Source: an uncultured Candidatus Saccharibacteria bacterium (lineage in GTDB: Bacteria > Patescibacteriota > Minisyncoccia > Phycocordibacterales > UBA918). From it: DNA of 64,000 nt. The stretch covers positions 371,558-435,557 of the forward strand of contig CAYOAM010000001.1 of the NCBI GenBank assembly GCA_964402035.1, read 5' to 3'. The notes beneath the pieces are model-generated. The model made no database searches. It saw only the letters and a list, made by a program, of their open reading frames with translations, and was not told where the DNA came from. The translations under genes were made by a program, and so were the position numbers. This document shows, piece by piece, positions 11,885-60,069 of the stretch (the first letter of the stretch is position 1; every line of letters begins with the position of its first letter).

Positions 11885-12607
11885 TTATTGTTCGAGCATA
11901 CGATGGCTCTTCTCCAAAAGCGGCAACCAAATAAATTTATTCAATGCATAAATGATGGAAAGAAAAATCAAAATGCCAAATAATGTCTTTACCGAGTCAT
12001 TTGAAAATATCGTGAAAAATGGCCCGAGACCTGTTTTGGTATGCAACAGCAACTCAGTTGCAATGAGCGCCTCCCACCCCTCGCCCAAACCAATGATCGC
12101 ACCGGTCACAATACCAGGCGCAGTAACCGGTAGCAAAAAGTAGCGTATGTAATCAATTCCTCGAATACGACTCATACGTACCGCTTCAAGCCAACTGCGA
12201 TCCACTTGCTTTAATGCGCTCACTATGGAAAAGATAATGGGCCAAATAATCGTGATCGTGAGAAAGAAAATAATGGTGGTCTCAGTTTGTCCAAAATAAT
12301 GCACAGCGATCGGTAAAATCACAAAAGTTGGTAGACTTTGTAAGACATCAAAAAGTGCGAGTACCGGACTTTCCGTCTTGCCTCGTATGAGAAGTACAAC
12401 CAGAAACCACGCCAAAACAGTGGCAAGTACAAAAGCCGCAAAAAGTCTCCACATAGAAATCGAGAGATCCCGCATAGCAGTACCAAACGAAATGTCGCTC
12501 ACTTGTGAAAAAACAAACAGTGACACGAGCGGCAACACGAGGATGCCAAAAGCAATGAGCACGTGCCTACGAGAGCGATTGAGCGAGAAGTGGTGATACG
12601 CACGCAT
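11885..12607 (-). CDS. ABC transporter permease (NitT/TauT family)
   Basis: 240 aa, multi-TM. Abuts the ATPase gene with a 1-nt gap. EAA-like loop region. Confidence 0.8.
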   Translation of the reverse strand: MRAYHHFSLNRSRRHVLIAFGILVLPLVSLFVFSQVSDISFGTAMRDLSISMWRLFAAFVLATVLAWFLVVLLIRGKTESPVLALFDVLQSLPTFVILPIAVHYFGQTETTIIFFLTITIIWPIIFSIVSALKQVDRSWLEAVRMSRIRGIDYIRYFLLPVTAPGIVTGAIIGLGEGWEALIATELLLHTKTGLGPFFTIFSNDSVKTLFGILIFLSIIYALNKFIWLPLLEKSHRMLEQ

Positions 12608-12735: not shown

Positions 12736-14103
12736 CTATTTTTTTATCGAAGCTTTTTTTAGCGGAATGATCATCGGAGTTTTTCCCGTCTTTGGATTTG
12801 GTGCGATACTTTCGACAAACGAAAGCTGCACATCGACATCAGTTTTCCTGAGACATTTTTCTGCAAGAAGAAGTCCAATAAGTGTCTGTATTTCTTCAGT
12901 GATTCGCTCCCTATCACCCTCTACAACCATCCGCAGTACGACTGTCCGCACCCCTGTCTGTTCAATTTGATACTGTTTTAATCCAGGGAAAAATAGACCC
13001 ACAAGATCCATGGGATGAATTTCAACCACTCGCTTATCTTTAAGTGTAAGAGTAATTCGGTCGAGTTTCCTTCCAGTCACCTGACTGATGCGTGTAAATG
13101 AAAAAGCATCATCCTCGCCCTCAATCGTCAGTTCATCGTCAAGTGTATAGCGAATCAGAGGGAAAATATCATTGCCAAAAATAGTGATGACCACCCGCCC
13201 CAATACACCAGAAGGGACAACGGCCCCGTGGTCATCAATAGCCTCAAGTTTTAAAATATCATCAAATACATCGAGCGTGCCAGAGCTATGGAGACTTGCC
13301 GCCATCGCGAGGCATTCAGTTGCGCCGTAGTAGTCGACAGGACGTCTACCGAAAGCAAGTTTGATCCGCTCTTCGCGATCTGCTGTTAGAGGTTCGCCTG
13401 AGGTGATGATCATCTTGGGCGCAAGATCAAGTAGTTTTTGTATTTGCGCTTCAGCAACGACGACAAGCCCACTCGCATACCCCACAAGCACTGTTGGCTT
13501 AAATGCAGTGAGTTTTTTTACTAACTCCTCTTGTGGCAGCGCAACATCGACACTCAAGGTCTTTAGAAATGGCACATCGTTGACGAGGCTAAAGCCTGCA
13601 TGATGTCCCGATGCTTCACCGATAAAAGCGATACGCACGCGTCCTAAAAGGAAATCACTGATCGGGAGTGGCAGCAAACGTGAAGCAACGGTCCCTGAAA
13701 GCCGTGCCCAAAACTTCAAAGAGAACAAGAAGATACCAACAAACCCAGATGAGCCCGATGTATTGATCGCAATATATTTGTTTTGAAAAAGCTCCTTTCC
13801 GGTTGGATCTTGTCGTATAAAATCTTCAATGGCCCCCTTCTCTATCCCCGGGACCGTGATCACGTCCTCAAAATGTGTCATGAGGTCATGTTTATTGACC
13901 GTCGGAAATTTTGAAAGTGGCGTTCGCAGGAGTGTTGCACGTGTAATCCCAGCCTTCGCCCAAAGCTCGCGATAAAATTTTGAATGCGTATGCGCATGGA
14001 GTAACGTCGCATGCAGCCGTCGCTCTTGCAGTGACAATACTTTCTTGCGTGGAAACGAAAAAATCCGTCGTGCATTAAAATAACTTATGATTCCAAAGAA
14101 CAT
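12736..14103 (-). CDS. adenylate-forming enzyme, phenylacetate-CoA ligase (PaaK/CapK/F390-synthetase) family
   Basis: 455 aa. P-loop-like AINTSGSSGFVG matches the PaaK (S/T)SG(S/T)TG motif. The C-terminal domain architecture fits the family. Confidence 0.6.
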   Translation of the reverse strand: MFFGIISYFNARRIFSFPRKKVLSLQERRLHATLLHAHTHSKFYRELWAKAGITRATLLRTPLSKFPTVNKHDLMTHFEDVITVPGIEKGAIEDFIRQDPTGKELFQNKYIAINTSGSSGFVGIFLFSLKFWARLSGTVASRLLPLPISDFLLGRVRIAFIGEASGHHAGFSLVNDVPFLKTLSVDVALPQEELVKKLTAFKPTVLVGYASGLVVVAEAQIQKLLDLAPKMIITSGEPLTADREERIKLAFGRRPVDYYGATECLAMAASLHSSGTLDVFDDILKLEAIDDHGAVVPSGVLGRVVITIFGNDIFPLIRYTLDDELTIEGEDDAFSFTRISQVTGRKLDRITLTLKDKRVVEIHPMDLVGLFFPGLKQYQIEQTGVRTVVLRMVVEGDRERITEEIQTLIGLLLAEKCLRKTDVDVQLSFVESIAPNPKTGKTPMIIPLKKASIKK

Positions 14104-15729: not shown

Positions 15730-16359
15730 ATGTTTGAACGAAACTCTTTAAGTGACAAGATATTATTTTTAAAATTTGGACTTTTAAATCTCATCTTATT
15801 TTTACTAGTCTATGTTCCAACTAATAATTTACCCCATGAAACATACTTTCAACCATATTTTCTCTGGGAACTTCAGACACAACGAATAGACTGGATGATA
15901 ATTCCATACCATAGTTTCAACTTACTCTTTCTCATCCCTTTGTTTCTCCTCAGAGGCAGACATATCAAAATACTTGGAGTATCATTTTTTTTAACCACTG
16001 TAATCGCGGGGCTCTTCTTTATAATATTTCCCACCCAACTTGGTTTTGTGAGAATAGTTCCTGAAGGTTTCTTCACCTTTTTTTACGAGCATCTATACAA
16101 GTTGGATAATACGACAAATCTTGTTCCTTCATTGCATGTTACGTATGTAACACTTTATTTTATATCTTGTGTACCATTCTTGAAGAGAAAGCTTTCTAAA
16201 ATGTTATTCACTCTATTTACTCTGACAATTATAAGTTCAACATTCTTTACACATCAGCATCATATAGTTGATATAGTATCTGGGATCCTCTTAGCTTCTT
16301 CTGTCTACTGGTTTGTCAGCTATAAATTATTTCAGGAAAATTCTCAACATCTGCAATAA
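15730..16359 (+). CDS. PAP2-superfamily membrane phosphatase-like protein
   Basis: 209 aa, multi-TM. PSLH (resembling the PSGH motif) and HQHHIVDIVSG (matching the SRxxxxxHxxxD third motif) suggest an acid phosphatase/PAP2 fold. Confidence 0.45.
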   Translation: MFERNSLSDKILFLKFGLLNLILFLLVYVPTNNLPHETYFQPYFLWELQTQRIDWMIIPYHSFNLLFLIPLFLLRGRHIKILGVSFFLTTVIAGLFFIIFPTQLGFVRIVPEGFFTFFYEHLYKLDNTTNLVPSLHVTYVTLYFISCVPFLKRKLSKMLFTLFTLTIISSTFFTHQHHIVDIVSGILLASSVYWFVSYKLFQENSQHLQ

Positions 16360-17251
16360 CAGCAGGGGCCTTTTCGAAATTTGGTCGCATACCCCACCAG
16401 AGACTCAACCATCGTTTGAAATATGAATATTGTGGGACTGTATGATATTTAGGGTTAGACAACTCTGTCCAAGGAAGAAATGGGAACTTATGGTGTGCAT
16501 GATCCCACTGTCCATTCAAGAGTACTGCACCATGTATCTTACTTACAGAAAGATCTGAAGCTCCTTCAACTACATTTCTTGGTGTCCATGCATGAGTAAC
16601 ATATTGACGCGTTGCCCAATTAATACCAAAGCAAGCGTAAACAATCAAAACACTTTGCCACTGTAAGGAAAGAATATTCCACATTACGATCCATAGGGTG
16701 ATAGTAAAAATAATCTCAAGCCGTACTTTTGTAATAACCTTTCCTTTAAATTCGTTAAATAAGATACTTGAGAATGGCGATTGTCTAAAAGGTTTAGTCT
16801 TAAAGAACCAAGGTGCTATTGCCATCAGTAGATTTCCGAGTGGTACTAATGGGTAATATATGCCGGTGAGTATCCCGTACCATTGAATGTTTTTTGTAAT
16901 CTTATTATCATTGGGATAATAGTAATCGAAGAGTTCATGATCCGTCCTATTTCCCCGATGATGCATTCGATGAGCAATCTCGAACATGGTGAAGGATTTT
17001 GGAAATAAGCTGTGACAAAGTACTCCGAGGATATAATTCATCTTTTTCGATTTATGGAGTACGTGATGTACCGATTCGTGCATAAGTGCATAATTCGTAA
17101 GTAGCACAAACGAAAATAATATTCCTATCGGAATCGACCAAATAAGCTCAAGACGCGAACCTAACCAAAGCAAGCCAAATGCTCCAATTTGAATCAGAAC
17201 AACGAGTAGTAGGTTGAGTCTACTAGGTAATTTAATCGTTGTAATTTTCAT
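16316..17251 (-). CDS. membrane fatty-acid desaturase/hydroxylase superfamily protein (three His boxes)
   Basis: His boxes HESVHH, HRMHH and HAHH with multi-TM spacing typical of di-iron desaturases/hydroxylases. OlsE-type lipid hydroxylases share this fold. Confidence 0.8.
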   Translation of the reverse strand: MKITTIKLPSRLNLLLVVLIQIGAFGLLWLGSRLELIWSIPIGILFSFVLLTNYALMHESVHHVLHKSKKMNYILGVLCHSLFPKSFTMFEIAHRMHHRGNRTDHELFDYYYPNDNKITKNIQWYGILTGIYYPLVPLGNLLMAIAPWFFKTKPFRQSPFSSILFNEFKGKVITKVRLEIIFTITLWIVMWNILSLQWQSVLIVYACFGINWATRQYVTHAWTPRNVVEGASDLSVSKIHGAVLLNGQWDHAHHKFPFLPWTELSNPKYHTVPQYSYFKRWLSLWWGMRPNFEKAPAVIADVENFPEIIYS

Positions 17252-17259
17252 TTGTGACT

Positions 17260-17931
17260 CTACGATTTACTTCTGCGGAAAAATCTAAATGCAATGAAAC
17301 CAAGAATGAGACCAAGTGCCACTCCACCTAAAGCAAAATACTTATTCCATGACTGAGCACTTGTGAGAAGCGGGTTATCGAACAGATTGCTTGTAAATTG
17401 TAAGGAGACAACTTTCCATGAACCATTCTCCTTAACTAGTGTAGTAGACCACTTTGATGTGACTTCCATTTCCATACCGGCTACAAAAGTATAGTGATCA
17501 ACTGCAGTTCCATATGCTATTGCCGTATCGCCGTAAAACTCAGTCAATTTGTCGGCAGTCACTTTTGTCTTTATACTCTTAAGGACGCCACCATTTTCAT
17601 TAAAAATCCTTTCTTGAAATGCTTTGACTTCAGCAACTCCATCAGCAACTTCTGCATTTTGGTAAATAATGTTCACATTTGGATCAAGGTACTTGATCAT
17701 GTCATCAAACCTACCCTCATTAATTGCCTTTTCCGCATCAATCAACATTGTTCTGAGAGCATTATGATCTGCGGTGCGGTCAGAAGTATCAACAGCAGAG
17801 GTGCTCGTTTGAGCAAATGTGGTGAGGCTAAAACTACCTGCTAAAATTAACCCTACCAGAAAAAAGAGTCCTTGTTTCATAAATTTAATTTGTATTATTA
17901 ATATAATGGCACATCTTATATATGATCCCAC
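17260..17931 (-). CDS. secreted/membrane-anchored hypothetical protein (NTF2/SnoaL-like fold suspected)
   Basis: A signal peptide starting at the internal Met (MKQGLFFLVGLILAGSFSLTTFA) and a C-terminal TM anchor. No catalytic motif recognised. Confidence 0.4.
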   Translation of the reverse strand: MGSYIRCAIILIIQIKFMKQGLFFLVGLILAGSFSLTTFAQTSTSAVDTSDRTADHNALRTMLIDAEKAINEGRFDDMIKYLDPNVNIIYQNAEVADGVAEVKAFQERIFNENGGVLKSIKTKVTADKLTEFYGDTAIAYGTAVDHYTFVAGMEMEVTSKWSTTLVKENGSWKVVSLQFTSNLFDNPLLTSAQSWNKYFALGGVALGLILGFIAFRFFRRSKS

Positions 17932-18820
17932 TCATATCACTTGTTCTGAGGAAATGGTCAACTCCCCACACGGGATACACCTCACCAGAGATGTGTATCA
18001 AATCCTTGAGAAGAATTATACCATCATTCGGACCTGATGGAGCAAGTGTTTTATATCTTTTTACAAGAAATGGTTCTACATGTGAAAGTAGTGGGAACCC
18101 AACGATATGAACTACTTTAATATGTGAATCTAGAAGCATTTCTTTTTGCAAAGACTTGTTCCTGCACGCAATTTGATCTGTGACAGCATAATCAATCCTC
18201 AAGACTTTCAGCGTTAAGTACCAAATTATTTTCGTCAAAAAAGTACGAAGTTTTTTATCTGCGTGGGGTGTTCCGTTGATTAGACCACCAATACTGATCC
18301 ATCCTTTAATATTTTTTGCAAGATTTTTACCTCGTAATTCTTCAAGCGCTAAACGAACTTCTGTAGAACCTTTACTTAAAGAGACAAGCCAAACATTGTT
18401 ATGCTGGTTATCACGGAGTTTACTTAAGATGATTTCTTTATTATCTAAAACTGACCCTCGACTAAGCACTTCAACAGTCTCTGTTTCGAATCCAAATTTC
18501 TCTGCAATATTTCTGACCAATAATCCGTCCCCGCCAATATCACCATGTTCTTTATAGAACATGCCCGGTATTATAATTATTTTCGTCGGTTGATTAGGTG
18601 CTGATAGTGACGTGGAGAAATTATTAATAGTGGCAATAAAGTTCTTGTGTTTCATGAGTAAATACTTATACAGCATTGCTGTCGCCTGATCAGTACCATG
18701 CGCAGAAGTCACTTCGTCTACTTTTTCAAGTATCAGGTCACTAGTAAAAACAACTGATGTCTTTTTAAACAGTTCAATTTCATCTATAAGCGGTGAATTA
18801 CGGACAATCCCTCTTTTCAT
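17885..18820 (-). CDS. hypothetical protein, possible alpha/beta-hydrolase-like
   Basis: 311-aa ORF. A weak nucleophile-elbow-like segment LVSLSKGS. No confident family assignment. Confidence 0.35.
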   Translation of the reverse strand: MKRGIVRNSPLIDEIELFKKTSVVFTSDLILEKVDEVTSAHGTDQATAMLYKYLLMKHKNFIATINNFSTSLSAPNQPTKIIIIPGMFYKEHGDIGGDGLLVRNIAEKFGFETETVEVLSRGSVLDNKEIILSKLRDNQHNNVWLVSLSKGSTEVRLALEELRGKNLAKNIKGWISIGGLINGTPHADKKLRTFLTKIIWYLTLKVLRIDYAVTDQIACRNKSLQKEMLLDSHIKVVHIVGFPLLSHVEPFLVKRYKTLAPSGPNDGIILLKDLIHISGEVYPVWGVDHFLRTSDMSGIIYKMCHYINNTN

Positions 18821-18822
18821 AA

Positions 18823-19782
18823 TTATTTATTCATTGGGTATCGAGGCAACTTGTCCCAATAATTCCAAAAATCAACTGCAGAAGCATCTTCTATCGTAAG
18901 AATGCCCTTTTTCGGTTTCATATTCTTTTGTATAGGAAAATCGGGTTTAAGAAAAGAGAAACTCATGAATCTCAAAAATGATAATCTTGGTTTCTCAATT
19001 ATTCGCAGAAATGAGGTTCGGGATTCTTTAGGAAGAGCGACAACAAAATAAAGTGTTGTCGTTTTATTTCCTTCGTTTGGGAGGAGTGCAAGAAAAGCAC
19101 AGTGCCCTGTAATCTTGTTATGAACCATAATAAGATTACCACCGTAATAATCCAATTGAATATTTGACTTAAGTAAACCAAGAAATTTTATTATGTAGTC
19201 ATACCACCTTCTAACAATAAGACCAATTTCAAGGCTAATGCCAATATGAAATATATTCTGACTAAACACAGTATGACTAAACACAGTACGATTATGGACA
19301 TTATAAAAATGCCATGTATCAAAACCATTAAGGCTAACTGCCAGATACGGGTTTTGCAACTGATGCACCAACGGCATTGAATATGCCGGATTTGCTATTT
19401 CAGTAAATTGCGGAATTTCGAAAAGAGGTTTTTCTCCCCAAAATATGAACACGAGACCATACCTTTCCTCCACAAAAAGTCTGCCTGTTACAACTTGTGA
19501 GGGCTTAAGATTTGAGGGTGGCATTTTTGTGCATTCTCCATCTGCATTAAACTGCCATTCATGAAGTGGGCAAGCAATGCAATTGTCCTTAACCGTCCCA
19601 TTTGCAAGGTCGGTTCCCATGTGAGGACAAAACCTGCTCACCATACCGAGTTTTCCATCACCACCTCTAAATAGAAGCCAATCTGTTCCGTTAAACAAGA
19701 TCGGCTTAAGCTGTTTTCTCTTGATTTCACGTGATAAACAGATTGGGTACCATGATTGAGGTAAGGAGAATTGTTCTGCCAT
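18823..19782 (-). CDS. Rieske [2Fe-2S] domain non-heme iron oxygenase-like protein
   Basis: Rieske motifs CPHMG...(17 aa)...CPLHEW at the N-terminus. ~320 aa matches the oxygenase alpha-subunit-like (PaO/KshA-like) architecture. Confidence 0.75.
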   Translation of the reverse strand: MAEQFSLPQSWYPICLSREIKRKQLKPILFNGTDWLLFRGGDGKLGMVSRFCPHMGTDLANGTVKDNCIACPLHEWQFNADGECTKMPPSNLKPSQVVTGRLFVEERYGLVFIFWGEKPLFEIPQFTEIANPAYSMPLVHQLQNPYLAVSLNGFDTWHFYNVHNRTVFSHTVFSQNIFHIGISLEIGLIVRRWYDYIIKFLGLLKSNIQLDYYGGNLIMVHNKITGHCAFLALLPNEGNKTTTLYFVVALPKESRTSFLRIIEKPRLSFLRFMSFSFLKPDFPIQKNMKPKKGILTIEDASAVDFWNYWDKLPRYPMNK

Positions 19783-19903
19783 ATTTTTTAATTATCTAAC
19801 AATTATTCTGTTTTGACAATACAGCACAATACGGTACTATTCGATGCGGATTGCCCTTGTTCATTGAAATAATTCACCAACCTCAACCTCTGGAGATTCT
19901 GAT

Positions 19904-21284
19904 GAAGATCACACTACTTATGCCTCAGAGCGATATGTATCGTAAGGGTGGGATTTTCCCGAAAGCCCTCCGGTATGCACCGCTTACACTCACAACTCTC
20001 GCAGCTTTGGTTCCAGAAGCTCTAAATGCCACTATCAAGTGCCATGACGAAGCTTCTGAAGTCTTTGATCCCGAGAAGTGTGATGCTGACATCGTCGGCA
20101 TCACCGTAATTACACCGACGTCAAAACGTGCGTATGCTTTTGCAAAAAAATTGCGCGCGCGAGGCATCTTTGTGGTTCTCGGTGGTGTCCATGTAACTCT
20201 TGTGCCTGAAGAGGCCCAAAAACATGCCGACGCAATCATCACTGGCTACGCAGAAGAGACATTGCCACAACTTTTGCGAGATTTTGCCAAGAAGCAGACT
20301 CGTAAGAGGTATGACCAAGGACATTCGTATCAGTTTCAAAGCGTGCCAATACCCCGACGAGACCTGCTCAACAGGAAGCCGTACGTAACCATGAACACTG
20401 TGCAAGCAGTGCGTGGGTGCCCATACAAGTGCACCTTCTGTGTAGTTCCGTCAGCTTGGCCTCAATATATGCACCGACCAATCAAAGAAGTCATTGCAGA
20501 AATTGAAGCCCTTGATGGGGACACGTTCTTATTCCTCGATTTGAGTCCTGTGGAAGATCGAAGGTACATCAAAGATCTTTATCGAGCTTTGATACCACTC
20601 AAGAAAAAATGGGGAGGCTTGTCTACGTTCACGATTTGCAAAGATCGTGAGATGCTTGAACTCGCTTCCAAGAGTGGTTGCCGAGGTTTGCTCATTGGTA
20701 TCGAATCAGTGAACCCATCAAACCTACACGAAATGAAGAAAGGGTTTAATAAGCCCGACTCCTACCGTGAGCAGATCAAAATGCTGCACGATCACGGAGT
20801 AGCAGTAAACGGCTGTTTCGTGTTTGGTATGGACGAGGATAACAAAGACGTCTTTGATAGGACGGCTGAGTTTGCAATCGAGACCGCCATTGACTTGCCG
20901 AGGTTTGCCGTGGCTACTCCTTTCCCTGGAACGCCGTTCTTCAAACAACTGCAATCTGAGAAAAGGATACAGAGCTACGACTGGAGCTTGTACAGTGGCC
21001 AACACGTCTTGTTCCAACCAAAGCAAATGACCGCCGAAGAGTTGCATCAAGGTATTCGTAGGACATGGAAAGAGGTTTACAGGCTTGGTTCGGTTTGGAA
21101 GAGAATCTTTTCTTCTGAGGCGAGCAGAGACTGGGACTTACTCAAAGTGTCCATCCCTGCAAACTTGGGTTACGCCGCGTATTCAAAATTTCTCCCACCA
21201 TTCATTTCGATGTCGTGTGGGGAGGAAGATATGTGGCTACCTGAGACAGTGCAACAATCACCAATCGTTCTCAACAGACTCTAG
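19904..21284 (+). CDS. B12-binding domain radical SAM protein (class B radical SAM methyltransferase-like)
   Basis: N-terminal B12-binding-like region, then the CxxxCxxC cluster RGCPYKCTFCVV. The start is set at MKITLLMPQ, which is typical for the family. Confidence 0.8.
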
Positions 21285-21292
21285 GAGGTTTT

Positions 21293-22687
21293 ATGCGTAT
21301 TCTATTTGTCACTCCTCATGTCGGACGAAAGTCTGATATGAGGTATGTGCGAACGTGGCAAATGGAGCCGCTCACCATTGCCACGCTCGCAGCACTAACA
21401 CCGAATGATGTGGAAATTGAGTATGTCGATGAACGCTTAGGCGAACGCATCGACTACTCTGTCCACAGGGACTTGGTCATCATCACGGTAGAAACCTATA
21501 CAGCAAAGAGATCTTACGAAATCTGCGCTGAATGCCGTGAACATGGTCTCCCTACCTTAATCGGCGGGTACCATGTAATGCTCTTGCCCCAAGAAGCACA
21601 GAAGTACGGAGACTCCATAATGGTCGGCTTCGCCGAGCCATTGTGGGAGGAGATGATTTCTGACGCAAAGAAAGGAAGTCTGAAACCTCTCTACGTTCAA
21701 GATAGAACGGTGAAATACCCGTTCGTTATTCCACGCAGAGACATTTTCGGAGGGAGAAACTACTTCAACCTCCACTGCGTGGAAACTGGACGTGGATGTC
21801 CTCTCACGTGCGAGTTTTGCTCGATTACGGCCGTAACAGGTGCAACATACATTGCACGGCCAATAGACAGAGTCGTGGAAGATATTCGATCCCTCAAAGG
21901 AAACAATATATTCCTCGTCGAAGATAACTTCGTTGGCAACAAGCGACACGCCAAGGAATTACTTCGAGCAATGATTCCCCTCAAAATCAATTGGGTTGGC
22001 CAAGGAACACTCAACATGGCCAATGACGAGGAATTACTTGAACTCATGAAAGCAAGTGGGTGTGCAGGGGTGTTGATCGGCTTTGAGTCGCTTAAAAGGG
22101 AGACCTTGATGGCGATGAACAAACCAATCAATACAAGGTTCGACTACGAGAAGTCAATCAAGCAATTGCACCGGTACGGCATCGCACTCTACGGTACGTT
22201 TATCTTCGGGTATGACACCGAGAGTGTGGAAGACATCCGCCTTACTGTCGAAAAAGCAATCGACTTCGGCATCTTCATGGCCGCATTCAATCACTTACTA
22301 CCGTTCCCTGGTACGCCAACGCATGACAGGCTTCAAGCTGAAAAGAGGTTGGTGTATGACAAGTGGTGGCTGTCCCCCGAGTTTCGATTTGGGGAAGTTC
22401 CATTTCACCCGAAAAGTATGTCTCGGGAGAGACTGCATGAAGAATGTTTGCGAGCACGTGAACGTTTCTACAGCATGTCATCAATTCTGCGAAGAGGTGT
22501 TGAAAACATCCAAGGTAACTGCGGTTCTTTGAAGAAAATCGGTGCATACACGTGGATCAACTATTTGCTTCGGCGAGAAGTTGCCGAAAAAGATGGTTTG
22601 CCACTTGGTAATCACCCATTTGTACCAAAACCAAACGAAAGGAGTCCTGGGCATGAAGCGTTTCCTATTCGGATCCGAAGTGCATGA
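21293..22687 (+). CDS. B12-binding domain radical SAM protein (paralog of the preceding gene)
   Basis: MRILFVTPH start and the radical SAM cluster RGCPLTCEFCSI. Same domain order as the upstream paralog. Confidence 0.8.
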   Translation: MRILFVTPHVGRKSDMRYVRTWQMEPLTIATLAALTPNDVEIEYVDERLGERIDYSVHRDLVIITVETYTAKRSYEICAECREHGLPTLIGGYHVMLLPQEAQKYGDSIMVGFAEPLWEEMISDAKKGSLKPLYVQDRTVKYPFVIPRRDIFGGRNYFNLHCVETGRGCPLTCEFCSITAVTGATYIARPIDRVVEDIRSLKGNNIFLVEDNFVGNKRHAKELLRAMIPLKINWVGQGTLNMANDEELLELMKASGCAGVLIGFESLKRETLMAMNKPINTRFDYEKSIKQLHRYGIALYGTFIFGYDTESVEDIRLTVEKAIDFGIFMAAFNHLLPFPGTPTHDRLQAEKRLVYDKWWLSPEFRFGEVPFHPKSMSRERLHEECLRARERFYSMSSILRRGVENIQGNCGSLKKIGAYTWINYLLRREVAEKDGLPLGNHPFVPKPNERSPGHEAFPIRIRSA

Positions 22688-23726
22688 CGAAGCGTGTCGT
22701 GCAATACTTCGAGAAAGTTCGATGGGAAAAGACGTTAGGCTCTCGTTTCGACGGGAGCCTTCTTTTTTTCCAGCAGAAAAAATCACCAACACGTGGTCAC
22801 AACTAGTCGTCTTACTAGACGACGAAAACGACAAAGTGCTTGGCTTCGGTGTAAGGTCAGGAAGACCATACTGGCTCAATGGTCAAGAAGTTGAACTCGG
22901 TTACATCAGTCAACTCAGACTCGTTCCTGAGTTCAGAAATGGACTCTATCTTGCGAAAGGATACAGGAAGTTCAAGGAGTTACACGAACAAGATGGAAAG
23001 GTTCCGTTCTACATTACAACAGTGTTTTCAGACAACGAAATAGCGAGGTCAACACTAGAAAGTAAACGGGTTGGGTTACCGTCCTACAGACCTCTCGACG
23101 AATTATCCTCGTACTTTTTCATTGCACAGAAAGCGCACAGTGAGTCAGCCGAAGCTACACATCAGGCTGATATCGTTGAGGTGCTGACAAAATACAATGA
23201 AGAAGTGCGGGGCGGAAGTCTTGCAACGAGGTACGACGGAAACACGATGTCGTGGATGGCACTGGTTGATCATGAAGCAGTTGCGGTGCACACCAGTAAT
23301 TTCACAGCTTCGGCAGTACTTGTAGATTTCTCAAACGTTAAGCAAGTGGTTATTGATGGGTACTCAATGCCTTACAAAATAATCACAGGACTCGCAAGAG
23401 CCACTGCTCTATTTTTGGGAATTAGACCACCACCAAAGGTCGGTTCACACCTGAGATCTCTCTACCTGACCGCTATGAGTATCACAGGTGACAGAGAAGA
23501 TGGATTTAATACGTTGTTGCAACACGCAAGAGACAGAGCCTTCAAAAGAAACTGTCACGGGGTTGTGTGTGGACTTAGTTCTCGTAGTTCTTTTAATCAG
23601 CACGCAAACCGGATGTGCATCAGCATCACAAAAAGTATTCTGTATGCTGTTGCATGGGACGAGAGCGTGATACCGAAAATAGATGCCGACACTAATCAAA
23701 TCAATGTCGAAGTCGCCACCTTATAG
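22653..23726 (+). CDS. hypothetical protein, GNAT-like acyltransferase suspected
   Basis: The start is set at the Met preceded by AAAGGAG (22637-22643). It overlaps the upstream radical SAM stop by 35 nt. The core LVVLLDDENDKVLGFGV...LGYISQLRLVPEFRNG resembles the GNAT beta-strand/P-loop region. Confidence 0.4.
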   Translation: MKRFLFGSEVHDEACRAILRESSMGKDVRLSFRREPSFFPAEKITNTWSQLVVLLDDENDKVLGFGVRSGRPYWLNGQEVELGYISQLRLVPEFRNGLYLAKGYRKFKELHEQDGKVPFYITTVFSDNEIARSTLESKRVGLPSYRPLDELSSYFFIAQKAHSESAEATHQADIVEVLTKYNEEVRGGSLATRYDGNTMSWMALVDHEAVAVHTSNFTASAVLVDFSNVKQVVIDGYSMPYKIITGLARATALFLGIRPPPKVGSHLRSLYLTAMSITGDREDGFNTLLQHARDRAFKRNCHGVVCGLSSRSSFNQHANRMCISITKSILYAVAWDESVIPKIDADTNQINVEVATL

Positions 23727-23808
23727 CCATTCGTTGCGGAATGGCTATTTTTATAATGCTGTGATAGATTTTCATAAGTTTTTTGTTCATTGTCAAGGAG
23801 CACACACC

Positions 23809-24510
23809 ATGAGTAAAATTATCGGAACGCTTGAGCCTGTATGGTCATGTGGACCAGAAATAAAGCAGGCCTGTTTTGAACTACTGTCACGACATTTTCA
23901 AGGAGTGACGTGGAAGCAGTTCAACTCTGACTTTCATGAAAAACAGTACGTTGCACTTTTGAGGAAAAATGATCGGATTGTCGGTTTTTCAACTATGACA
24001 ATTCTCCCCATATTTCTTTCAGAGGGTCATGCCATGAACGTCGCCTTCTCTGGCGACACGATTGTTGAATTTGAAGACAGGAATACAACTGAACTGGGAA
24101 AGTCACTGGCTTCCTTCTTCCGAGAGGTAATATCTGTTCATGGTGATGGAAACGTATGGTACGTACTTATCTCGAAAGGATGGCGTACATATAAAGCAAT
24201 GGAATTTATGTTCCACCGTTTTGCGCCACATGCCCATCAGAAACTTTCGGGTCTCGAAAAAGAAGTCATTGTTGGATTCGGAAAGGAAAAGTACCTGTCT
24301 CGTTTTGATGAGAAAAGTCTCATCATTAAAGCGCTTGACGGCGATCAAAAACTGCAACCAAATTCACCTGACCTGAAAGTCCCTCCTTCAGAGCTGGGGG
24401 CGTTCTTTATTGAGCGGAACCCCGGCTTTGCAAATGGTGACGAACTTGTTTGTGTGGCTCGGTTGTCCTACAACAATTTTACTGAGAGGTTTAAGCGATG
24501 TTTCAGATAA
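23809..24510 (+). CDS. OlsB/FeeM-like N-acyltransferase (Acetyltransf_5-like), putative N-acyl amino acid/aminolipid synthase
   Basis: The start is set at the Met preceded by AAGGAG (23795-23800). ~234 aa. The segments ALLRKNDRIVGFSTMTILP and AFSGDTIVEFEDR match the pattern of ornithine-lipid OlsB / long-chain N-acyl amino acid synthases. Confidence 0.45.
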   Translation: MSKIIGTLEPVWSCGPEIKQACFELLSRHFQGVTWKQFNSDFHEKQYVALLRKNDRIVGFSTMTILPIFLSEGHAMNVAFSGDTIVEFEDRNTTELGKSLASFFREVISVHGDGNVWYVLISKGWRTYKAMEFMFHRFAPHAHQKLSGLEKEVIVGFGKEKYLSRFDEKSLIIKALDGDQKLQPNSPDLKVPPSELGAFFIERNPGFANGDELVCVARLSYNNFTERFKRCFR

Positions 24511-25940
24511 AGCTACTGCTATGCAATATAGTGCTGTGGCTGTCGTTGCTACCTGAAGCGACACGCTACATCATTGCATTTCTATTTCCGAAACGAGCTC
24601 AGAAAAAAGTACTCATGCAAATCCTTAAGAAGATGAGCATGGACATATCTGAGTTCAGTAATCGCCCTGTCACCAGATATGACGATTACACGGGACAAAT
24701 CGAAGTACTGAAAGAAACAGGAGTTCACCCTACCTACCATGAAGAAGTAACGCGACTGTGTCCAACAAGTGGCACCTCGGGAGGAAGTAAGCTCATACCG
24801 TACACAAAGAGCCTTAAGGGTGCATTCCAAAGTGGATTATACCCTTGGATCTTCTTTATGTACCTGAGATTTCCTTCGCTATTTCTCAAGCGCCAATACT
24901 GGTCAATCACACCAATTATTCAGACCAAAACTGATGATGCTACAAGCAAAGTCAAGATTGGGTTTGAAGACGACGAGGAATACGTTGGTGCTCTGCAGCG
25001 TCACATTACGAAGACGGTATGGGTTGATACGAAAAGGATTACCCACAACTGTCCTGATGTTGAAGCATTTCTTTCCCGACTTGGGGCGAAGTTAAGCAAA
25101 GAGAAGAGGCTGGGTTTAGTTTCAGTCTGGAGCCCGAGTTTAATTTCCTTGCTGGTAAGAAAGTATGGGGGGATACTACCGAAGAATCTTGTTCTCAGCT
25201 CATGGGCACACGGTTATTCAAAGGCGGAATCAGAAAATGTAGTTCAAATTCTCAAGGCAGAGTTACAGCCGAAAGGACTGTTATCTACGGAAGCTTGCGT
25301 CACAATCCCGATCGGCACTGACACCTTTCTACTTTCGTACAATTCACACTATTACGAATTTAGAGACACCAATACGGATAAGCTGGAAACAGCCACAACT
25401 GTAGAGGTTAGTCATGAGTACGAAGTGGTTGTAACCACGCAAAGTGGGTTTGTGCGATACGCCACAGGAGACGTAGTGAGAGTGGTAAAATTTGCGCTTG
25501 GCAGACCCTCTTGCGTGTTCATTGGAAGGATAGGAGTTACAGACCTATTCGGAGAGAAACTTGACGAACGCACTATTGAGAAAGCAGTTGGTGAGCTTTT
25601 GGGCGAACAGAAGACTGAGGAGTCGTTTTGGTTCTTTGCCCCAACAAGAAACCATGACGAATCAATTTCCTACACATTGTTCGCTGGATCAAATGTAGTA
25701 GGTGCTTCGTTACCAGAAAGTCTTGATACTCTGTTACGGACCTCGTATCACTATAACTATTGCAGAGAGCTCGGTCAGCTGGCGCAAGCAAGGATTTTTG
25801 TCATTGAAGATTCTTCGCCAGAAGTACGGTTTATCGAGATATGTTCACGTGAAGGTGGTACTCGACTGGGAGACATCAAGATAGGTCGAATCTCAAAAAG
25901 GTTCGACTGGAATCAACTGTTTTCAGGTCATTTCGTTTAG
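24498..25940 (+). CDS. GH3 auxin-responsive-promoter family protein (acyl-acid amido synthetase-type adenylating enzyme)
   Basis: The GH3 signature TSGTSGGSKLIPYTKS matches SSGTSGG-KLIP. 480 aa. 13-nt overlap with the upstream gene. Confidence 0.7.
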   Translation: MFQIKLLLCNIVLWLSLLPEATRYIIAFLFPKRAQKKVLMQILKKMSMDISEFSNRPVTRYDDYTGQIEVLKETGVHPTYHEEVTRLCPTSGTSGGSKLIPYTKSLKGAFQSGLYPWIFFMYLRFPSLFLKRQYWSITPIIQTKTDDATSKVKIGFEDDEEYVGALQRHITKTVWVDTKRITHNCPDVEAFLSRLGAKLSKEKRLGLVSVWSPSLISLLVRKYGGILPKNLVLSSWAHGYSKAESENVVQILKAELQPKGLLSTEACVTIPIGTDTFLLSYNSHYYEFRDTNTDKLETATTVEVSHEYEVVVTTQSGFVRYATGDVVRVVKFALGRPSCVFIGRIGVTDLFGEKLDERTIEKAVGELLGEQKTEESFWFFAPTRNHDESISYTLFAGSNVVGASLPESLDTLLRTSYHYNYCRELGQLAQARIFVIEDSSPEVRFIEICSREGGTRLGDIKIGRISKRFDWNQLFSGHFV

Positions 25941-25971
25941 GGCTCGGTCATTTGATCGAGCCCTTCTTTTT
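25940..25971 (+). terminator. rho-independent terminator after the GH3 gene, with a second hairpin at 25981-26010 serving convergent dedA
   Basis: gggctcggtca-tttga-tcgagccc followed by TTCTTTTT. The hairpin gatcccaccg...cggtgggtc is followed by a T-run on the minus strand. Confidence 0.55.
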
Positions 25972-26023
25972 GATAAAAAAGATCCCACCGCATTATCTAC
26001 GGTGGGTCTCATAAAGGTCAGTG

Positions 26024-26596
26024 TCATCTTGGTTGGATACTCTTTACGTATTTGTAGAATATGTAGATGGCTCCACCTGCAAGAATAAGTAGCCCAGCAC
26101 TGTACCAACCAAATGTGCCATCACCGTAATTCCTGCCGAAGTAGTAGCCAAAGTACGTCAGTCCTAGTGCCCATAAAAATGATGTGACCGCGATAATCAC
26201 AAAATACAAGGCACGATTCATTTCAGCAATACCTGCTACGACAGGAACAACGACTTTAACCCCTGGAAGAAATTTCCCGAAAAAGATAACTGCGGAGCCA
26301 CGTCTAGCAAAAGCAATCTGTAACTTAGCAATTTTTTCTTCTGAGAATCCTTTCCATTTTCTCACGTATACTATGCCTTTACTCCGGGATGCTTCATACA
26401 GAATCGTATTTCCGATGATATTCCCGATGGTTCCTGACACCGCAATCAACAATATCGACAATTCGATTGTTGGTGCAAAAAATCCTGCGGTGACGTATAC
26501 AAACTGACTTGACGGTAAGCTGATTACGCCGTTTGTGATCATAAAGATCACAATGGCAAGATAGCCAAACGTCACGATGGTTGTTTCGATAGTCAT
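26024..26596 (-). CDS. DedA/TVP38 family membrane protein
   Basis: 190 aa. The conserved DedA segment VTAGFFAPTIELSILLIAVSGTIGNIIGNTILYEASRS. Confidence 0.75.
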   Translation of the reverse strand: MTIETTIVTFGYLAIVIFMITNGVISLPSSQFVYVTAGFFAPTIELSILLIAVSGTIGNIIGNTILYEASRSKGIVYVRKWKGFSEEKIAKLQIAFARRGSAVIFFGKFLPGVKVVVPVVAGIAEMNRALYFVIIAVTSFLWALGLTYFGYYFGRNYGDGTFGWYSAGLLILAGGAIYIFYKYVKSIQPR

Positions 26597-26694
26597 GGCG
26601 ACCTCCCATAGCGTTAAACATCAAAATTCCATTACGACTCTACCATATAAATCCTAGTTCCCTAAGCTCTATAAAAAATACTTCTTGAACTACA

Positions 26695-27423
26695 CTAGTG
26701 TGAAAAGAAAGCCTCAGTATAGATTTGTTCCTCACGGATATTTGCATTTATTAATCCATTCCACATATCTCTCACAAAGTGTATGGAACCACAGATAAAA
26801 TACTCATCGTTACTTGATCCATCCCCTCTGCAATTAACCTCCTCAACAATTAGAGCGGGGGACATCCTGCCTTTTCTGTATGTACCTGAGACAATATCAT
26901 CTTTGGTGATAAAAAAAGTTGCTTGGATGTTAGAATTTTTCTCTACTATTTCTTCCAGTTCGCCTTTAAAGAGGATTGATTCAATAAATGAATTACTGTA
27001 AAAAAGTTCTATTTTTCTTTCTACATTATTTTTTAGAAAATGCCCAAGCATACTCATGATTGGTGTAATACCAATCCCTGCAATAATAAAAATAAGTCTT
27101 GTTTCATTGTTTTCAGTATAAAAATAACCGTAGGGATCAGACGCTTCTATAGTGTCTCCAGCATTTAAATTAGATAGATGCTTAGAAAATTCCCCCATTT
27201 CTTTAACTGTAATAGCGAGAAAGTTGTCTTGAGGCGCACTTGAAATACTGTATGATTTTCCCTCGGTAATAGATGGATCCTGAAGAAAAATATTTATGTA
27301 TTGACCAGGGATGAAAGCAGGGACAGATGATTCTGTTTGTGTGACTAGTTGAATGGTAACCACGTCATCCAGCTCTCTTTTCTTGTCAATCACTTTATAG
27401 GTTCTCTTACTTGTCTGATGCAT
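26695..27423 (-). CDS. FAD/NAD(P)-binding oxidoreductase, ferredoxin-NADP reductase-like
   Basis: FAD-binding RxYS-type motif (KSYSISS) after a beta-barrel segment (GQYINIF), then a Rossmann-like GxGxxP (IIAGIGITPIMSM). Confidence 0.6.
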   Translation of the reverse strand: MHQTSKRTYKVIDKKRELDDVVTIQLVTQTESSVPAFIPGQYINIFLQDPSITEGKSYSISSAPQDNFLAITVKEMGEFSKHLSNLNAGDTIEASDPYGYFYTENNETRLIFIIAGIGITPIMSMLGHFLKNNVERKIELFYSNSFIESILFKGELEEIVEKNSNIQATFFITKDDIVSGTYRKGRMSPALIVEEVNCRGDGSSNDEYFICGSIHFVRDMWNGLINANIREEQIYTEAFFSH

Positions 27424-27874
27424 ATACTGTTTCGTAATTTTTTATCGCTTCTCGTAGTGCTAAGTGTCCAAGTACGGAACAATGATACTTCCTGTCTGGT
27501 AATCCTATTAACCTAGTCACAATTGCTTCTGGTGTTAATCGTTTTGCTCGTTTCAATGTCATTCCACCATTTTCCGTCACCATGATAGACATCATTGAAG
27601 TCGAGGCCACCGCAGATGGACACCCAAACGTCTTCCACTTACATTCAGAGATACTTTTCGTATCTTCCATTACCTTTATCCATACAGCCATCATATCTCC
27701 ACAAGTAGCACTCCCCACAACGCCATAACCATCTGCATCATACTGCGATTCGTCAATCAAACAGTTTTGGGGGTTAAAAAAATGCTCTTTTACGGTATCG
27801 CTATACAACCAACCGAGCTGCTCTGCTTCTTTCTTACTAGCTTTAGAAAAGAGTTTTTGAAAAAAGTTTTTCAT
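27407..27874 (-). CDS. iscU: Fe-S cluster assembly scaffold, NifU/IscU N-terminal domain type
   Basis: GSATCGDMM (matching GSPACGD) and KYHCSVLG (matching KLHCSMLA) scaffold cysteines. Adjacent to the cysteine desulfurase gene. Confidence 0.8.
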   Translation of the reverse strand: MKNFFQKLFSKASKKEAEQLGWLYSDTVKEHFFNPQNCLIDESQYDADGYGVVGSATCGDMMAVWIKVMEDTKSISECKWKTFGCPSAVASTSMMSIMVTENGGMTLKRAKRLTPEAIVTRLIGLPDRKYHCSVLGHLALREAIKNYETVYASDK

Positions 27875-29058
27875 AGCTCGGAAAGTGGAGATAAGTTTGT
27901 TAACGTACTCACGACCTGTGGAAATACTTTAAGAAAATAATCAATCTCTTTTTTTGTTGTGAATCTACCCATGGAAATCCTTAAACTTCCGTGAATCAAT
28001 TCGGGATTTTGTCCAATAGCAGTAAGTACATAGGATGGTCGTAAATCAGTTGCGGAACACGCTGATCCTGTTGAGACACAAATACCATGACTATCAAGCA
28101 TCATGAGCATCGACTCACCCTCTATACTTGGAATTGTTATATGCACCATCGAGGGCACACAGGCGACTTGATCACCATTAAACAGAACCTGAGGAATTTT
28201 CTTTTCCAATTCAGTACGCAAATATTTCTGTAGAACTTCTAATCGTTTGTGTTCGGTCTCTCTTTTCTCATTTGTAATAAATAGTGCTTTAGCAAAACCT
28301 ACAATCAGTGGCACACTTTCCGTTCCTGCTCGGAGATTATTCTCTTGACCCCCGCCAAGAATAAGAGCCTCAATCTTAATCCCAGTTTTTTTGTATAGTA
28401 AGCCCACCCCATTTGGACCGTACACTTTTGAGCTGTTCAGCGTTAAAAGATCTACGCCTAAAGTTTCCACATTAACAGGAAGCAATGTTATAGCTTGGCA
28501 AGCATCAACATGGAGCAAAGGAAGATTATTATGTTTAATTTGTGAAATTCTTGCAGACAGCTCTTCAATCGGTTGTATGGTACCTATCTCATTATTTACA
28601 AGCATTACAGAAATCAAAATTGTTCCATCGGTGATAAATTTTGCGCATTCATCGACATCAATAATCCCCTTCGCATTGGCCGGCACGACACTCACTCGAA
28701 ATCCCTCTCGTTCTAAACTATGCACCGCCTCTAGATTCGACTTATGTTCTATGTTGGAAATAATAATATGGTTTCCCCTATCTTTATAGGCCCTCGCCGC
28801 ACCAACAATAGCCATATTATTTGATTCAGTACCAGAGCCCGTAAAGATGATTTCTTCAGATCTTGCTCCTATGATTTGTGCAATTGATGTACGGGCATCT
28901 TCGATTGCCTTTCTGGATCGTCGTCCGCGGATATGAAGCGATGACGGATTCCCATAAGATTGATCAAAAAAAGGCACCATGCAAGCAGTGACCTCTCTGT
29001 CTATAGGTGTACTGGCGGCGTAATCCAAATACACCTCCTTATGTGAATGGAAAAACAT
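27871..29058 (-). CDS. iscS: cysteine desulfurase (NifS/IscS, class V aminotransferase)
   Basis: PLP-lysine region SSKVYGPNGVGLLY (matching SGHKIYGPKGVGALY) and the active-site-loop Cys in SACSA. The start is trimmed to MFFHSHKEVYLDYAAS, which is preceded by GGAG. The longer ORF-track start lacks homology. Confidence 0.85.
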   Translation of the reverse strand: MFFHSHKEVYLDYAASTPIDREVTACMVPFFDQSYGNPSSLHIRGRRSRKAIEDARTSIAQIIGARSEEIIFTGSGTESNNMAIVGAARAYKDRGNHIIISNIEHKSNLEAVHSLEREGFRVSVVPANAKGIIDVDECAKFITDGTILISVMLVNNEIGTIQPIEELSARISQIKHNNLPLLHVDACQAITLLPVNVETLGVDLLTLNSSKVYGPNGVGLLYKKTGIKIEALILGGGQENNLRAGTESVPLIVGFAKALFITNEKRETEHKRLEVLQKYLRTELEKKIPQVLFNGDQVACVPSMVHITIPSIEGESMLMMLDSHGICVSTGSACSATDLRPSYVLTAIGQNPELIHGSLRISMGRFTTKKEIDYFLKVFPQVVSTLTNLSPLSEL

Positions 29059-59737: not shown

Positions 59738-60065
59738 TCCGATGTAGCTCAATGGTAGAGCAGCTCGCTGTGAACAAAAAAGTTCCAATCGCAGCTTCCT
59801 AGAGAAACCTAGGTTGAAAAACAAGGTGAATTGCTGGAAACCCCTTTGGGGCAATCAGCAGCCAAGCCCGATCGTATCGCAGATACGATTTAGGGAAGGT
59901 TCAGAGACTATCCCTTCGGGGAGTAGCAGGATAACGTTAATCTTTGCGAAGCGCCTTGCACCGTCATTTTGATCAAACAAAATCGGTGATGATATAGTCC
60001 ATCCCTTTTAGCAATAAGAGGAGCAATGTAACGAGTTGGTTGTAGGTTCGAATCCTACCATCGGA
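59738..60065 (+). tRNA. tRNA-Asn(GUU) interrupted by a group I intron between anticodon positions 35 and 36 (exons 59738-59771 and 60028-60065)
   Basis: Exon 1 TCCGATG-TA-GCTC-AATGGTA-GAGC-A-GCTCG-CUGU. Exon 2 UAA-CGAGT-TGGTT-GTAGG-TTCGAAT-CCTAC-CATCGGA-G. The acceptor stem pairs perfectly and the discriminator is G73. After splicing the loop reads CU-GUU-AA. Confidence 0.7.
59772..60027 (+). ncRNA. group I self-splicing intron (256 nt) in the tRNA anticodon loop
   Basis: P1: exon GCUGU (59767-59771) pairs with IGS GCAGC (59791-59795), placing U:G at the splice site. Core elements are P aattgctggaaa (59829-59840), Q aatcagcagcc (59853-59863), R gttcagagacta (59899-59910) and S gatgatatagtcc (59987-59999). 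P2 is cctag/ctagg, P8 has a UUCG loop, and the intron ends in G60027. Confidence 0.75.
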
Positions 60066-60069
60066 GCAA

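Follow-up and report, generated by a model that had tools for sequence, protein, structure and literature searches.

An ancient pair of radical SAM paralogs with B12-binding-type domains, encoded in a conserved GH3/GNAT gene module of a Candidatus Saccharibacteria genome

A 64,000-nucleotide stretch of DNA from an uncultured Candidatus Saccharibacteria bacterium (contig CAYOAM010000001.1, positions 371,558 to 435,557; this whole stretch is called the window below) encodes two adjacent, diverged paralogs, here rSAM1 and rSAM2, in which a domain of the B12-binding type precedes a radical S-adenosylmethionine (SAM) core. A reading of the sequence alone had taken them for class B radical SAM methylases, of the kind that act on hopanoids, bacteriochlorophyll and antibiotics. 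The real context, which that reading missed, is a conserved module in which the pair is joined by two proteins of the GCN5-related N-acetyltransferase (GNAT) fold and a GH3-like amide synthetase, with a set of lipid-type accessory genes alongside. The module is horizontally mobile and found in more than 20 phyla; rSAM1 and rSAM2 would be its tailoring enzymes. The best explanation we can offer, with a probability of roughly 45%, is that the pair tailors an N-acyl amide product of the module by cobalamin-mediated C-methylation at two sites.

The pair and the region before it are laid out as follows; types 1 and 2 are the two clades described below.

19902..21284, plus strand: rSAM1, type-1 radical SAM enzyme with a B12-binding domain; 460 aa; Pfam Radical_SAM 59 bits, B12-binding 42 bits
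21293..22687, plus strand: rSAM2, the type-2 paralog; 464 aa; Radical_SAM 65 bits; 36% identical to rSAM1
19783..19901, no strand assigned: region between the divergent operons, with a promoter-like site for each, consensus matches only

The sequence-only reading had given two genes of 477 and 464 aa beginning at 19904. The adjacent open reading frames and the 464 residues of rSAM2 stand, but 477 residues are obtained for rSAM1 only from an upstream TTG (19851..21284). The ATG at 19902, a codon within which 19904 falls, gives 460 residues; it sits behind GGAG, was chosen in the gene calls on the source, a 453-kb metagenome contig (ENA ERZ3430527 NODE_5), and agrees with all orthologs and with near-identical database proteins. 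The 8-nt spacer between the genes (21285..21292) and the overlap of rSAM2 with the following gene are as had been described: the next gene starts at 22653, an overlap of 35 nt, and the packing is operon-like. Upstream of rSAM1 lies a promoter-like TTGACA-16-TACTAT (19813..19840, plus strand); a second such site, TTGTCA-17-GATAAT (19819..19791, minus strand), would serve the divergent operon, each with 10/12 consensus matches.

The common architecture proposed for the two proteins was borne out by Pfam and by the positions of the motifs: RGCPYKCTFC occupies residues 171-180 of rSAM1 and RGCPLTCEFC residues 167-176 of rSAM2. Both belong to the radical SAM superfamily (PF04055, 59.3 and 65.4 bits; cut-off 29.5), and they align with one another from residue 1, with 36% identity over 409 residues and an E-value of 4e-82, far beyond chance; the pairwise alignment thus upholds the paralogy. 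The cobalamin-binding region was recovered in part. rSAM1 matches the Pfam B12-binding domain (PF02310) at 42 bits (cut-off 32.1). With rSAM2 itself there is no such match at E<0.01; the domain is nevertheless found in 34 of 35 type-2 orthologs (best 1.5e-10), and the N-terminal domain of rSAM2 aligns with that of rSAM1 from its first residue. On these three grounds both proteins have the domain content of class B enzymes.

Conservation was followed in 226 sequences: 224 full-length relatives from 168 fetched loci and the two window proteins. The CxxxCxxC cysteines (C173, C177 and C180 of rSAM1) are invariant in 226/226. The N-terminal domain keeps a D, an (S/T), a T, GGxH, a P and an E invariant or nearly so in both types; within GGxH (rSAM1 residues 94-97), which is nearly invariant, the GG pair is strictly so. 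Besides the cluster motif just one cysteine is conserved in both types; therefore, an auxiliary cluster is not expected. The DxHxxG motif is absent from the pair, as it is from other class B enzymes. A B12-type domain alone is no proof of cobalamin binding, as enzymes of the AprD4 type have the domain and do not bind the cofactor (PMC12931638); cobalamin use by rSAM1 and rSAM2 is a prediction.

The duplication that gave rise to the pair is ancient and was accompanied by specialization, as had been suspected. A midpoint-rooted neighbour-joining tree of the 226 sequences splits into two clades of 113 each, drawn from many phyla, with rSAM1 in one and rSAM2 in the other. Identity is 40-62% among orthologs of one type from different phyla, and 31-37% between the types. 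A type-2 gene directly follows a type-1 gene on the same strand in 52 of the 70 loci that have both. rSAM1 represents type 1 and rSAM2 type 2 of a separate clade, so far uncharacterised, among the radical SAM enzymes that have a B12-binding-type domain. Type-1-like genes (45-47% identity) also stand alone in Riflebacteria/Ozemobacter metagenome-assembled genomes (MAGs; loci L023-L032, L034 and L036), without type 2 or any other module gene and next to the housekeeping genes Fpg and RsgA. The type-1 enzyme thus exists outside the module too; these unrelated contexts give no clue to function, nor do those of plasmid genes (32-37% identical) from Paraclostridium, Synechocystis 6714 and Aureibacter.

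Downstream of the pair, on the same strand, the module continues without interruption.

22653..23726, plus strand: protein C, a tandem-GNAT putative N-acyltransferase; 357 aa; identical to P0121
probably 23809..24510, plus strand: protein D, one GNAT domain followed by a conserved C-terminal extension of ~100 aa; 233 aa
24498..25940, plus strand: GH3-like adenylate-forming amide synthetase; 480 aa; GH3_M and GH3 domains; hydrophobic N-terminus
25939..25964, plus strand: terminator-like hairpin at the GH3 stop codon; 11-bp stem with 7 GC pairs, then a T-run

From rSAM1 to GH3 (19902..25940) the genes are tightly packed, with ends that overlap or nearly abut; the protein D reading frame could begin at 23683. 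Proteins C and D are both predicted to have the GNAT fold, and a role as acyltransferases is putative. For protein C, the AlphaFold2 model (mean predicted local distance difference test score, pLDDT, 87) is a tandem GNAT, and the top 50 PDB matches listed by Foldseek are all N-myristoyltransferases (best E-value 6e-12, template-modelling (TM) score ~0.6); at ~10% identity, and with no match to the Pfam N-myristoyltransferase models, this is a likeness of fold. Among its orthologs, 10/39 weakly match Pfam GNAT models, and protein C adjoins the rSAM pair in 56 loci. The protein D model (pLDDT 96.8) is likewise of GNAT fold, with AAC(2') and Naa60 matches at 6e-6, confined to the N-terminal ~135 residues; the C-terminal ~100 are unmatched. 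Profile searches with C and D against PDB sequences and Pfam gave marginal GNAT matches and no confident family. Protein D belongs to a family of 2,415 clusters at 50% identity. The GH3 protein is a member of its family by Pfam (GH3_M 56.6 bits; GH3 33.1 bits against a cut-off of 23.6), the nucleotide motifs TSGTSGGSK and YATGD are visible in the alignment, and the hydrophobic N-terminus comprises residues 1-19. It is not OlsH, the characterised GH3-like enzyme of ornithine-lipid synthesis: the OlsH model NF052613 scores 19.2 bits against a cut-off of 620. Apparent natural fusions of D and GH3 (P0361, P0362 and P0374; 726-788 aa) tie the two activities together; in P0362, the one checked, the D domain spans residues 5-236 and the GH3 domain 269-788.

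The same five components recur widely. Of 80 genome loci fetched with the rSAM1 profile, 50 contain the module, in many phyla; the commonest complete order is R1-R2-C-D-GH3 (19 loci), and the number of rSAM copies per core-bearing locus runs from 0 to 7, with a mode of 2. The labels of the MAGs concerned include several lineages of the candidate phyla radiation (CPR), Chloroflexota, Actinomycetes, Flavobacteriales, Planctomycetota, Verrucomicrobiota, Lentisphaerae, Acidobacteriota, Desulfobacterota, Bdellovibrionales, Myxococcota, Nitrospirae, Armatimonadota, Omnitrophota, a non-photosynthetic cyanobacterial lineage and Nanoarchaeota. Among cultured organisms, Peptoclostridium litorale DSM 5388 has the module with four rSAM paralogs and an integrase nearby, and a mobilizable IncFIB/IncFII plasmid of Citrobacter portucalensis from a gull (NZ_CP134684.1, 51417..63512; locus L169) carries it in full, with five B12-type rSAM paralogs and PAP2, DUF4440 and desaturase genes. 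The Citrobacter cluster has no second case in PLSDB and none in 5,426 complete E. coli genomes. Integrase genes adjoin the module in P. litorale (locus L084, 6820..7965 and 19666..20720) and in a metagenome locus (L122, 2833..4269), and in P. litorale a group II intron with a reverse transcriptase is adjacent as well. These neighbours point to horizontal mobility.

One way to find the chemistry of such enzymes is to ask which characterised family they resemble. Here the answer is that none is close. NCBIfam scores, given as bits for rSAM1/rSAM2 against the curated cut-off, are 117/69 against 481 for BchE (TIGR02026), 94.5/82.5 against 577.6 for HpnJ (TIGR03471), 75/91 against 600 for PhpK, 65/54 against 360 for QCMT, 56/44 against 650 for HpnR, 28/37 against 500 for TsrM and 48.7/38.6 against 500 for the AprD4 diol dehydratases (NF033070); the ladderane-type TIGR04072 gives 67 against 360. 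None of the class B methyltransferase cut-offs (PhpK, HpnR, QCMT/MgmA, TsrM, KedN5, Sden_1168) is reached, and methylating families (PhpK, HpnR, QCMT) are about as distant as non-methylating ones (BchE, HpnJ, AprD4). The methylase identity put forward from sequence is plausible, but it is not established. The best matches point both ways: that of rSAM2 is the P-methyltransferase PhpK, those of rSAM1 are BchE and HpnJ. The ranking holds across 25 type-1 and 35 type-2 members: BchE is top in 25/25 type-1 members (best E-value 1e-33) with HpnJ next, and type 2 goes best with PhpK, ApyD, a radical SAM enzyme of ribosomally synthesised and post-translationally modified peptide (RiPP) pathways, being among its better matches (1.4e-29). 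In rankings by hidden Markov model and BLAST score, plasmid references annotated as BchE or HpnJ are 23-28% identical to the pair. The solved structures that align with the rSAM core are QCMT (9ccb; PMC12931638), AprD4, TsrM, TokK and CysS. As no family cut-off is reached anywhere, the pair forms new subfamilies inside the radical SAM group with B12-binding domains; its chemistry cannot be read from homology.

Divergent from the rSAM operon runs an accessory block, closed by one gene on the opposite strand.

18823..19782, minus strand: Rieske [2Fe-2S] oxygenase; 319 aa; Pfam Rieske 75 bits
17885..18820, minus strand: alpha/beta-hydrolase-like protein; 311 aa; ortholog profile matches carboxyl esterase MGS0156 (5d8m), E-value 1.3e-8
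17260..17880, minus strand: membrane-anchored DUF4440/SnoaL-like protein; 206 aa; Pfam DUF4440 31 bits
16316..17251, minus strand: membrane di-iron enzyme of the fatty-acid-desaturase family; 311 aa; Pfam FA_desaturase 56 bits
15730..16359, plus strand: PAP2_3-family membrane phosphatase/phosphotransferase; 209 aa; Pfam PAP2_3 33 bits, cut-off 27

These are not chance neighbours, since homologs (27-60% identity) adjoin the C/D/GH3 core in distant loci. The Rieske homologs do so in loci L108, L122, L149, L160 and L018; the desaturase homologs in the same five, in L022 and L128, and on the Citrobacter plasmid; the PAP2_3 gene in 10 loci and on that plasmid; the DUF4440/SnoaL-like gene, whose product carries a hydrophobic segment at each end, in 23 loci, the plasmid among them. 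The alpha/beta hydrolase, with S146, S148, D287 and H288 invariant, accompanies the core in 10 loci and has no NCBIfam match at E<0.01. Among NCBIfam models the Rieske protein comes closest to the sterol monooxygenase SdmA, with a score of 60 bits where the cut-off is 600. In two soil loci (L149 and L160) one rSAM-less operon reads D-GH3-C-(AurF-like)-desaturase-Rieske-DUF4440-hydrolase-PAP2.

Other neighbours were set aside: an F390-synthetase/PaaK-like ligase (12736..14103, minus strand; 92 bits, cut-off 252), which does not travel with the module elsewhere; a DUF2238 membrane protein that lies with this ligase just past the accessory block; and DedA, FNR-like reductase and NifU/NifS genes. 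These are found with the module only in the two closest relatives, or never.

The rSAM genes and the oxygenases are distributed in a complementary way around the core. A count was made over loci anchored on protein D, a choice unbiased for rSAMs, in which the core is complete and the flank measures 6 kb or more. Of these, 10 hold rSAMs without oxygenases, 6 the reverse, 3 combine the two and 0 lack both (Fisher p = 0.003). The oxygenases of the rSAM-less clusters are O2-dependent (Rieske, desaturase, P450, AurF-like). Among the 50 rSAM-anchored, core-bearing genome loci, an oxygenase homolog is found in 4. The sample is small; the pattern is clear. The window itself holds both sets.

Two side observations concern the partners at each extreme. 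Many anaerobic versions have a third radical SAM protein without a B12 domain (~390 aa; 18 loci) and an Amidohydro_2 protein (11 loci), and one locus (L134, 9514..12110) a protein of metallo-beta-lactamase fold as well. In the aerobic, rSAM-less loci L088, L138, L153, L159 and L160 a protein of ~950 aa adjoins the Rieske gene; it combines an RnfD/NqrB-like membrane domain with FG-GAP repeats and a UnbV_ASPIC domain.

A scheme for the module as a whole can be drawn from these parts. The GH3-like enzyme would adenylate a carboxylic acid, most likely a fatty acid, and join it to an amine; the two GNAT-fold proteins would add or transfer acyl groups, to give an N-acyl amide, aminolipid-like product at the membrane. 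Each rSAM paralog would then direct the 5'-deoxyadenosyl radical, generated from SAM at its [4Fe-4S] cluster, at a different unactivated C-H bond of that product; the outcome to which we commit ourselves, as a guess, is C-methylation at two sites, mediated by cobalamin. That the product may be a lipid-like amide is suggested by the precedent of OlsH, the hydrophobic N-terminus of GH3, the lipid-type membrane partners and the likeness of protein C to a user of long-chain acyl-CoA. C-methylation is favoured by the arrays of diverged paralogs, which are typical of class B methylases: the multi-methylase sets of the bottromycin, thienamycin and gentamicin pathways are resembled by the arrays of 2-7 paralogs found here. 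It is favoured also by the conserved residues of the cofactor domain, and by the consideration that methyl branching and desaturation both tune lipid packing, which would explain the either/or pattern.

Several observations pull the other way. The product has never been observed, and CPR bacteria are not expected to make cobalamin. Every methylase family model stays below 25% of its cut-off, as do those of BchE, HpnJ and AprD4, and the best matches of rSAM1 (BchE and HpnJ) are non-methylating. The rSAM-less clusters always carry oxygenases, which would suit an oxidative role better than a methylating one. The VanA_C-type Rieske, AurF-like, P450 and Amidohydro_2 partners seen elsewhere are typical of aromatic chemistry too; as they would suit aromatic substrates equally well, the substrate class is an inference. 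Finally, the best solved-structure match of the type-2 profile, at 69 bits, is AprD4, which binds no cobalamin (PMC12931638).

A second perspective takes the either/or pattern at face value: the pair and the larger arrays would be non-methylating, O2-independent oxidative enzymes, carrying out BchE-like hydroxylation, desaturation or ring formation as anoxic stand-ins for the oxygenases. The D-anchored split, the rarity of oxygenase homologs in rSAM-bearing genome loci and the constant first place of BchE, then HpnJ, among type-1 members all argue for it. It does not account for everything: BchE is reached at 117 bits of 481, type 2 prefers a P-methyltransferase family, and rSAMs occur together with desaturase or Rieske genes in the window, in its relatives and on the Citrobacter plasmid, so that they are not simple substitutes. 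Moreover, few loci were sampled, and a choice between methyl branching and desaturation as routes to membrane fluidity would give the same pattern. This is the main competitor, possible but on balance doubtful. Rather unlikely, to our minds, is a related account in which the N-terminal Rossmann-like domain holds no cobalamin, as in AprD4 and ArsL, and the chemistry is plain radical SAM dehydration, rearrangement or C-C bond chemistry. The structural match to AprD4 speaks for it, the more so as no other solved structure aligns its N-terminal domain with rSAM1 (query residues 6-354); so do the failure of rSAM2 itself to match Pfam B12-binding, and the hosts, which are CPR and DPANN (Diapherotrites, Parvarchaeota, Aenigmarchaeota, Nanoarchaeota and Nanohaloarchaeota) organisms with minimal genomes. 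Non-binders, furthermore, sit within the similarity network of B12-type radical SAM enzymes (PMC12931638). Yet the AprD4 family model scores below BchE, HpnJ and PhpK, rSAM1 and nearly all type-2 members match the B12-binding domain, and its signature residues are kept in both types.

The substrate, too, can be conceived otherwise. Were it a ribosomal peptide or the N-terminus of a protein instead of a small lipid amide, the pair would carry out RiPP-like C-methylation or take part in an N-myristoyltransferase-like lipidation. Protein C does resemble an acylator of protein N-termini, ApyD is among the better type-2 matches, and arrays of B12-type radical SAM enzymes occur in RiPP pathways; against this, the N-myristoyltransferase likeness is one of fold, the accessory genes encode lipid-type membrane enzymes, the recurrent neighbours include no RiPP-typical protease, leader-binding or transporter gene, and no conserved small open reading frame was noticed in the short gaps of 19902-25940, where no systematic search was made. 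We consider a peptide substrate quite improbable. Hardly credible, last, is that the pair belongs to an ordinary family of lipid or pigment methylases or cyclases (HpnP/HpnR, BchE/BchQ/BchR or the ladderane type). All those models are weakly matched, but the scores fall so far below the cut-offs (HpnR 56/650, BchE 117/481, TIGR04072 67/360) as to contradict it, and no hopanoid, bacteriochlorophyll or fatty-acid-synthase genes are found in the window or the related loci. The same result disposes of the hopanoid and bacteriochlorophyll settings that the sequence-only reading had suggested; no genes for its third setting, antibiotics, lie nearby either. The gene context gives no hint of a defence system.

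A wider conjecture can be set beside these readings, one we regard as unlikely though worth stating. The module might make an undescribed N-acyl amide membrane lipid or signal, decorated by rSAM arrays in anoxic organisms and by oxygenases in oxic ones. CPR bacteria and Nanoarchaeota are thought to lack lipid synthesis; as CPR genomes and a Nanoarchaeota MAG carry the module, such organisms could, were this true, build or remodel lipids of their own from scavenged fatty acids. That CPR and DPANN genomes carry the module bears in any case on how such organisms obtain and tailor their membranes. Among the most demanding C-H reactions in biology are some carried out by B12-type radical SAM enzymes, a group in which the majority of subfamilies lack a known function. 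The present results link two new ones to a set of partners that is defined and very widespread, and the either/or pattern with the oxygenases hints at what may be a new pair of anaerobic and aerobic enzymes. Because culturable hosts exist (P. litorale DSM 5388, a Desulfuromonas isolate, and C. portucalensis with its mobilizable IncF plasmid), product and chemistry are directly testable.

The rest of the window fits a small fermentative genome: it also encodes a phosphoketolase, acetate kinase, a Mur ligase, penicillin-binding proteins and aminoacyl-tRNA synthetases. MAGs that bear the labels Candidatus Saccharibacteria and Candidatus Paceibacteria are the nearest genome records; their rSAM1 proteins are 97% and 93% identical to that of the window, and synteny extends across a dozen genes. 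The organism thus most likely belongs to the CPR/Patescibacteria. Rfam finds no cobalamin riboswitch in the window, nor riboswitches of any kind in the window or in seven related loci; the sole permease of an ATP-binding cassette transporter seen in the window (11885..12607) is of the BPD_transp_1 type. No bch genes are present in the window, and no hpn or shc genes were seen there. The G+C content, 45-48% across the rSAM-GH3 operon and through most of the window, falls to 37-39% in 16001..20000 (the minus-strand accessory block) and in 26001..28000 (past the operon). A tRNA gene at 59738..60067 (plus strand) has its anticodon loop split by a group I intron of ~257 nt (RF00028, 88 bits, 59762..60021); with introns allowed, ARAGORN calls it tRNA-Asn(GTT), an identity that hinges on the exact splice site.

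How does the module compare with known systems? With the class B enzymes TsrM, TokK, CysS, QCMT/MgmA, PhpK, HpnR, BchE and HpnJ the pair shares the order of a B12-type Rossmann domain and a CxxxCxxC core, the lack of conserved auxiliary-cluster cysteines, and the presence of several paralogs per cluster; it differs in forming clades of its own with no family model near its cut-off. In the literature searched, no class B enzyme is described in a context of GH3 with two GNAT proteins, full-text searches found nothing that links GH3-like enzymes with radical SAM enzymes, and we know of no radical SAM enzyme in any aminolipid pathway. The radical SAM diol dehydratase AprD4 (6fd2) is the best or second-best solved-structure match, N-terminal domain included, but its family model gives 39-49 bits of 500 and no aminoglycoside genes are found here. 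Protein C shares its tandem-GNAT fold with the eukaryotic N-myristoyltransferases; unlike them it is encoded in a bacterial operon. The complementarity of radical SAM enzymes and oxygenases around one core recalls BchE and AcsF, an anaerobic B12-type radical SAM enzyme and an aerobic di-iron enzyme for one and the same step, and BchE is also the top-scoring family of type 1. However, there are no tetrapyrrole genes here, both sets are present in this window, and an equivalence would be by analogy only.

The only characterised analogue of the core is the OlsH/OlsI ornithine-lipid pathway. OlsH, the only characterised bacterial GH3-like enzyme, uses a fatty acid and ATP to make N-acyl ornithine, and acts with an O-acyltransferase of the alpha/beta-hydrolase type (PMC12493201). 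The known decorations of ornithine lipids are O2-dependent hydroxylations (one by an enzyme of the di-iron fatty-acyl hydroxylase type), N-methylation and taurine transfer, with no radical SAM enzyme among them (PMC12971839). Unlike the OlsH/OlsI/OlsG operon of Singulisphaera acidiphila (PMC12493201), the module described here has acyltransferases of GNAT fold in place of OlsI, and its GH3 enzyme is remote from OlsH (19 bits of 620). Like that operon, it combines a GH3-like ATP-dependent amide synthetase with an acyltransferase and a tailoring enzyme, and its extended cluster includes an alpha/beta hydrolase.

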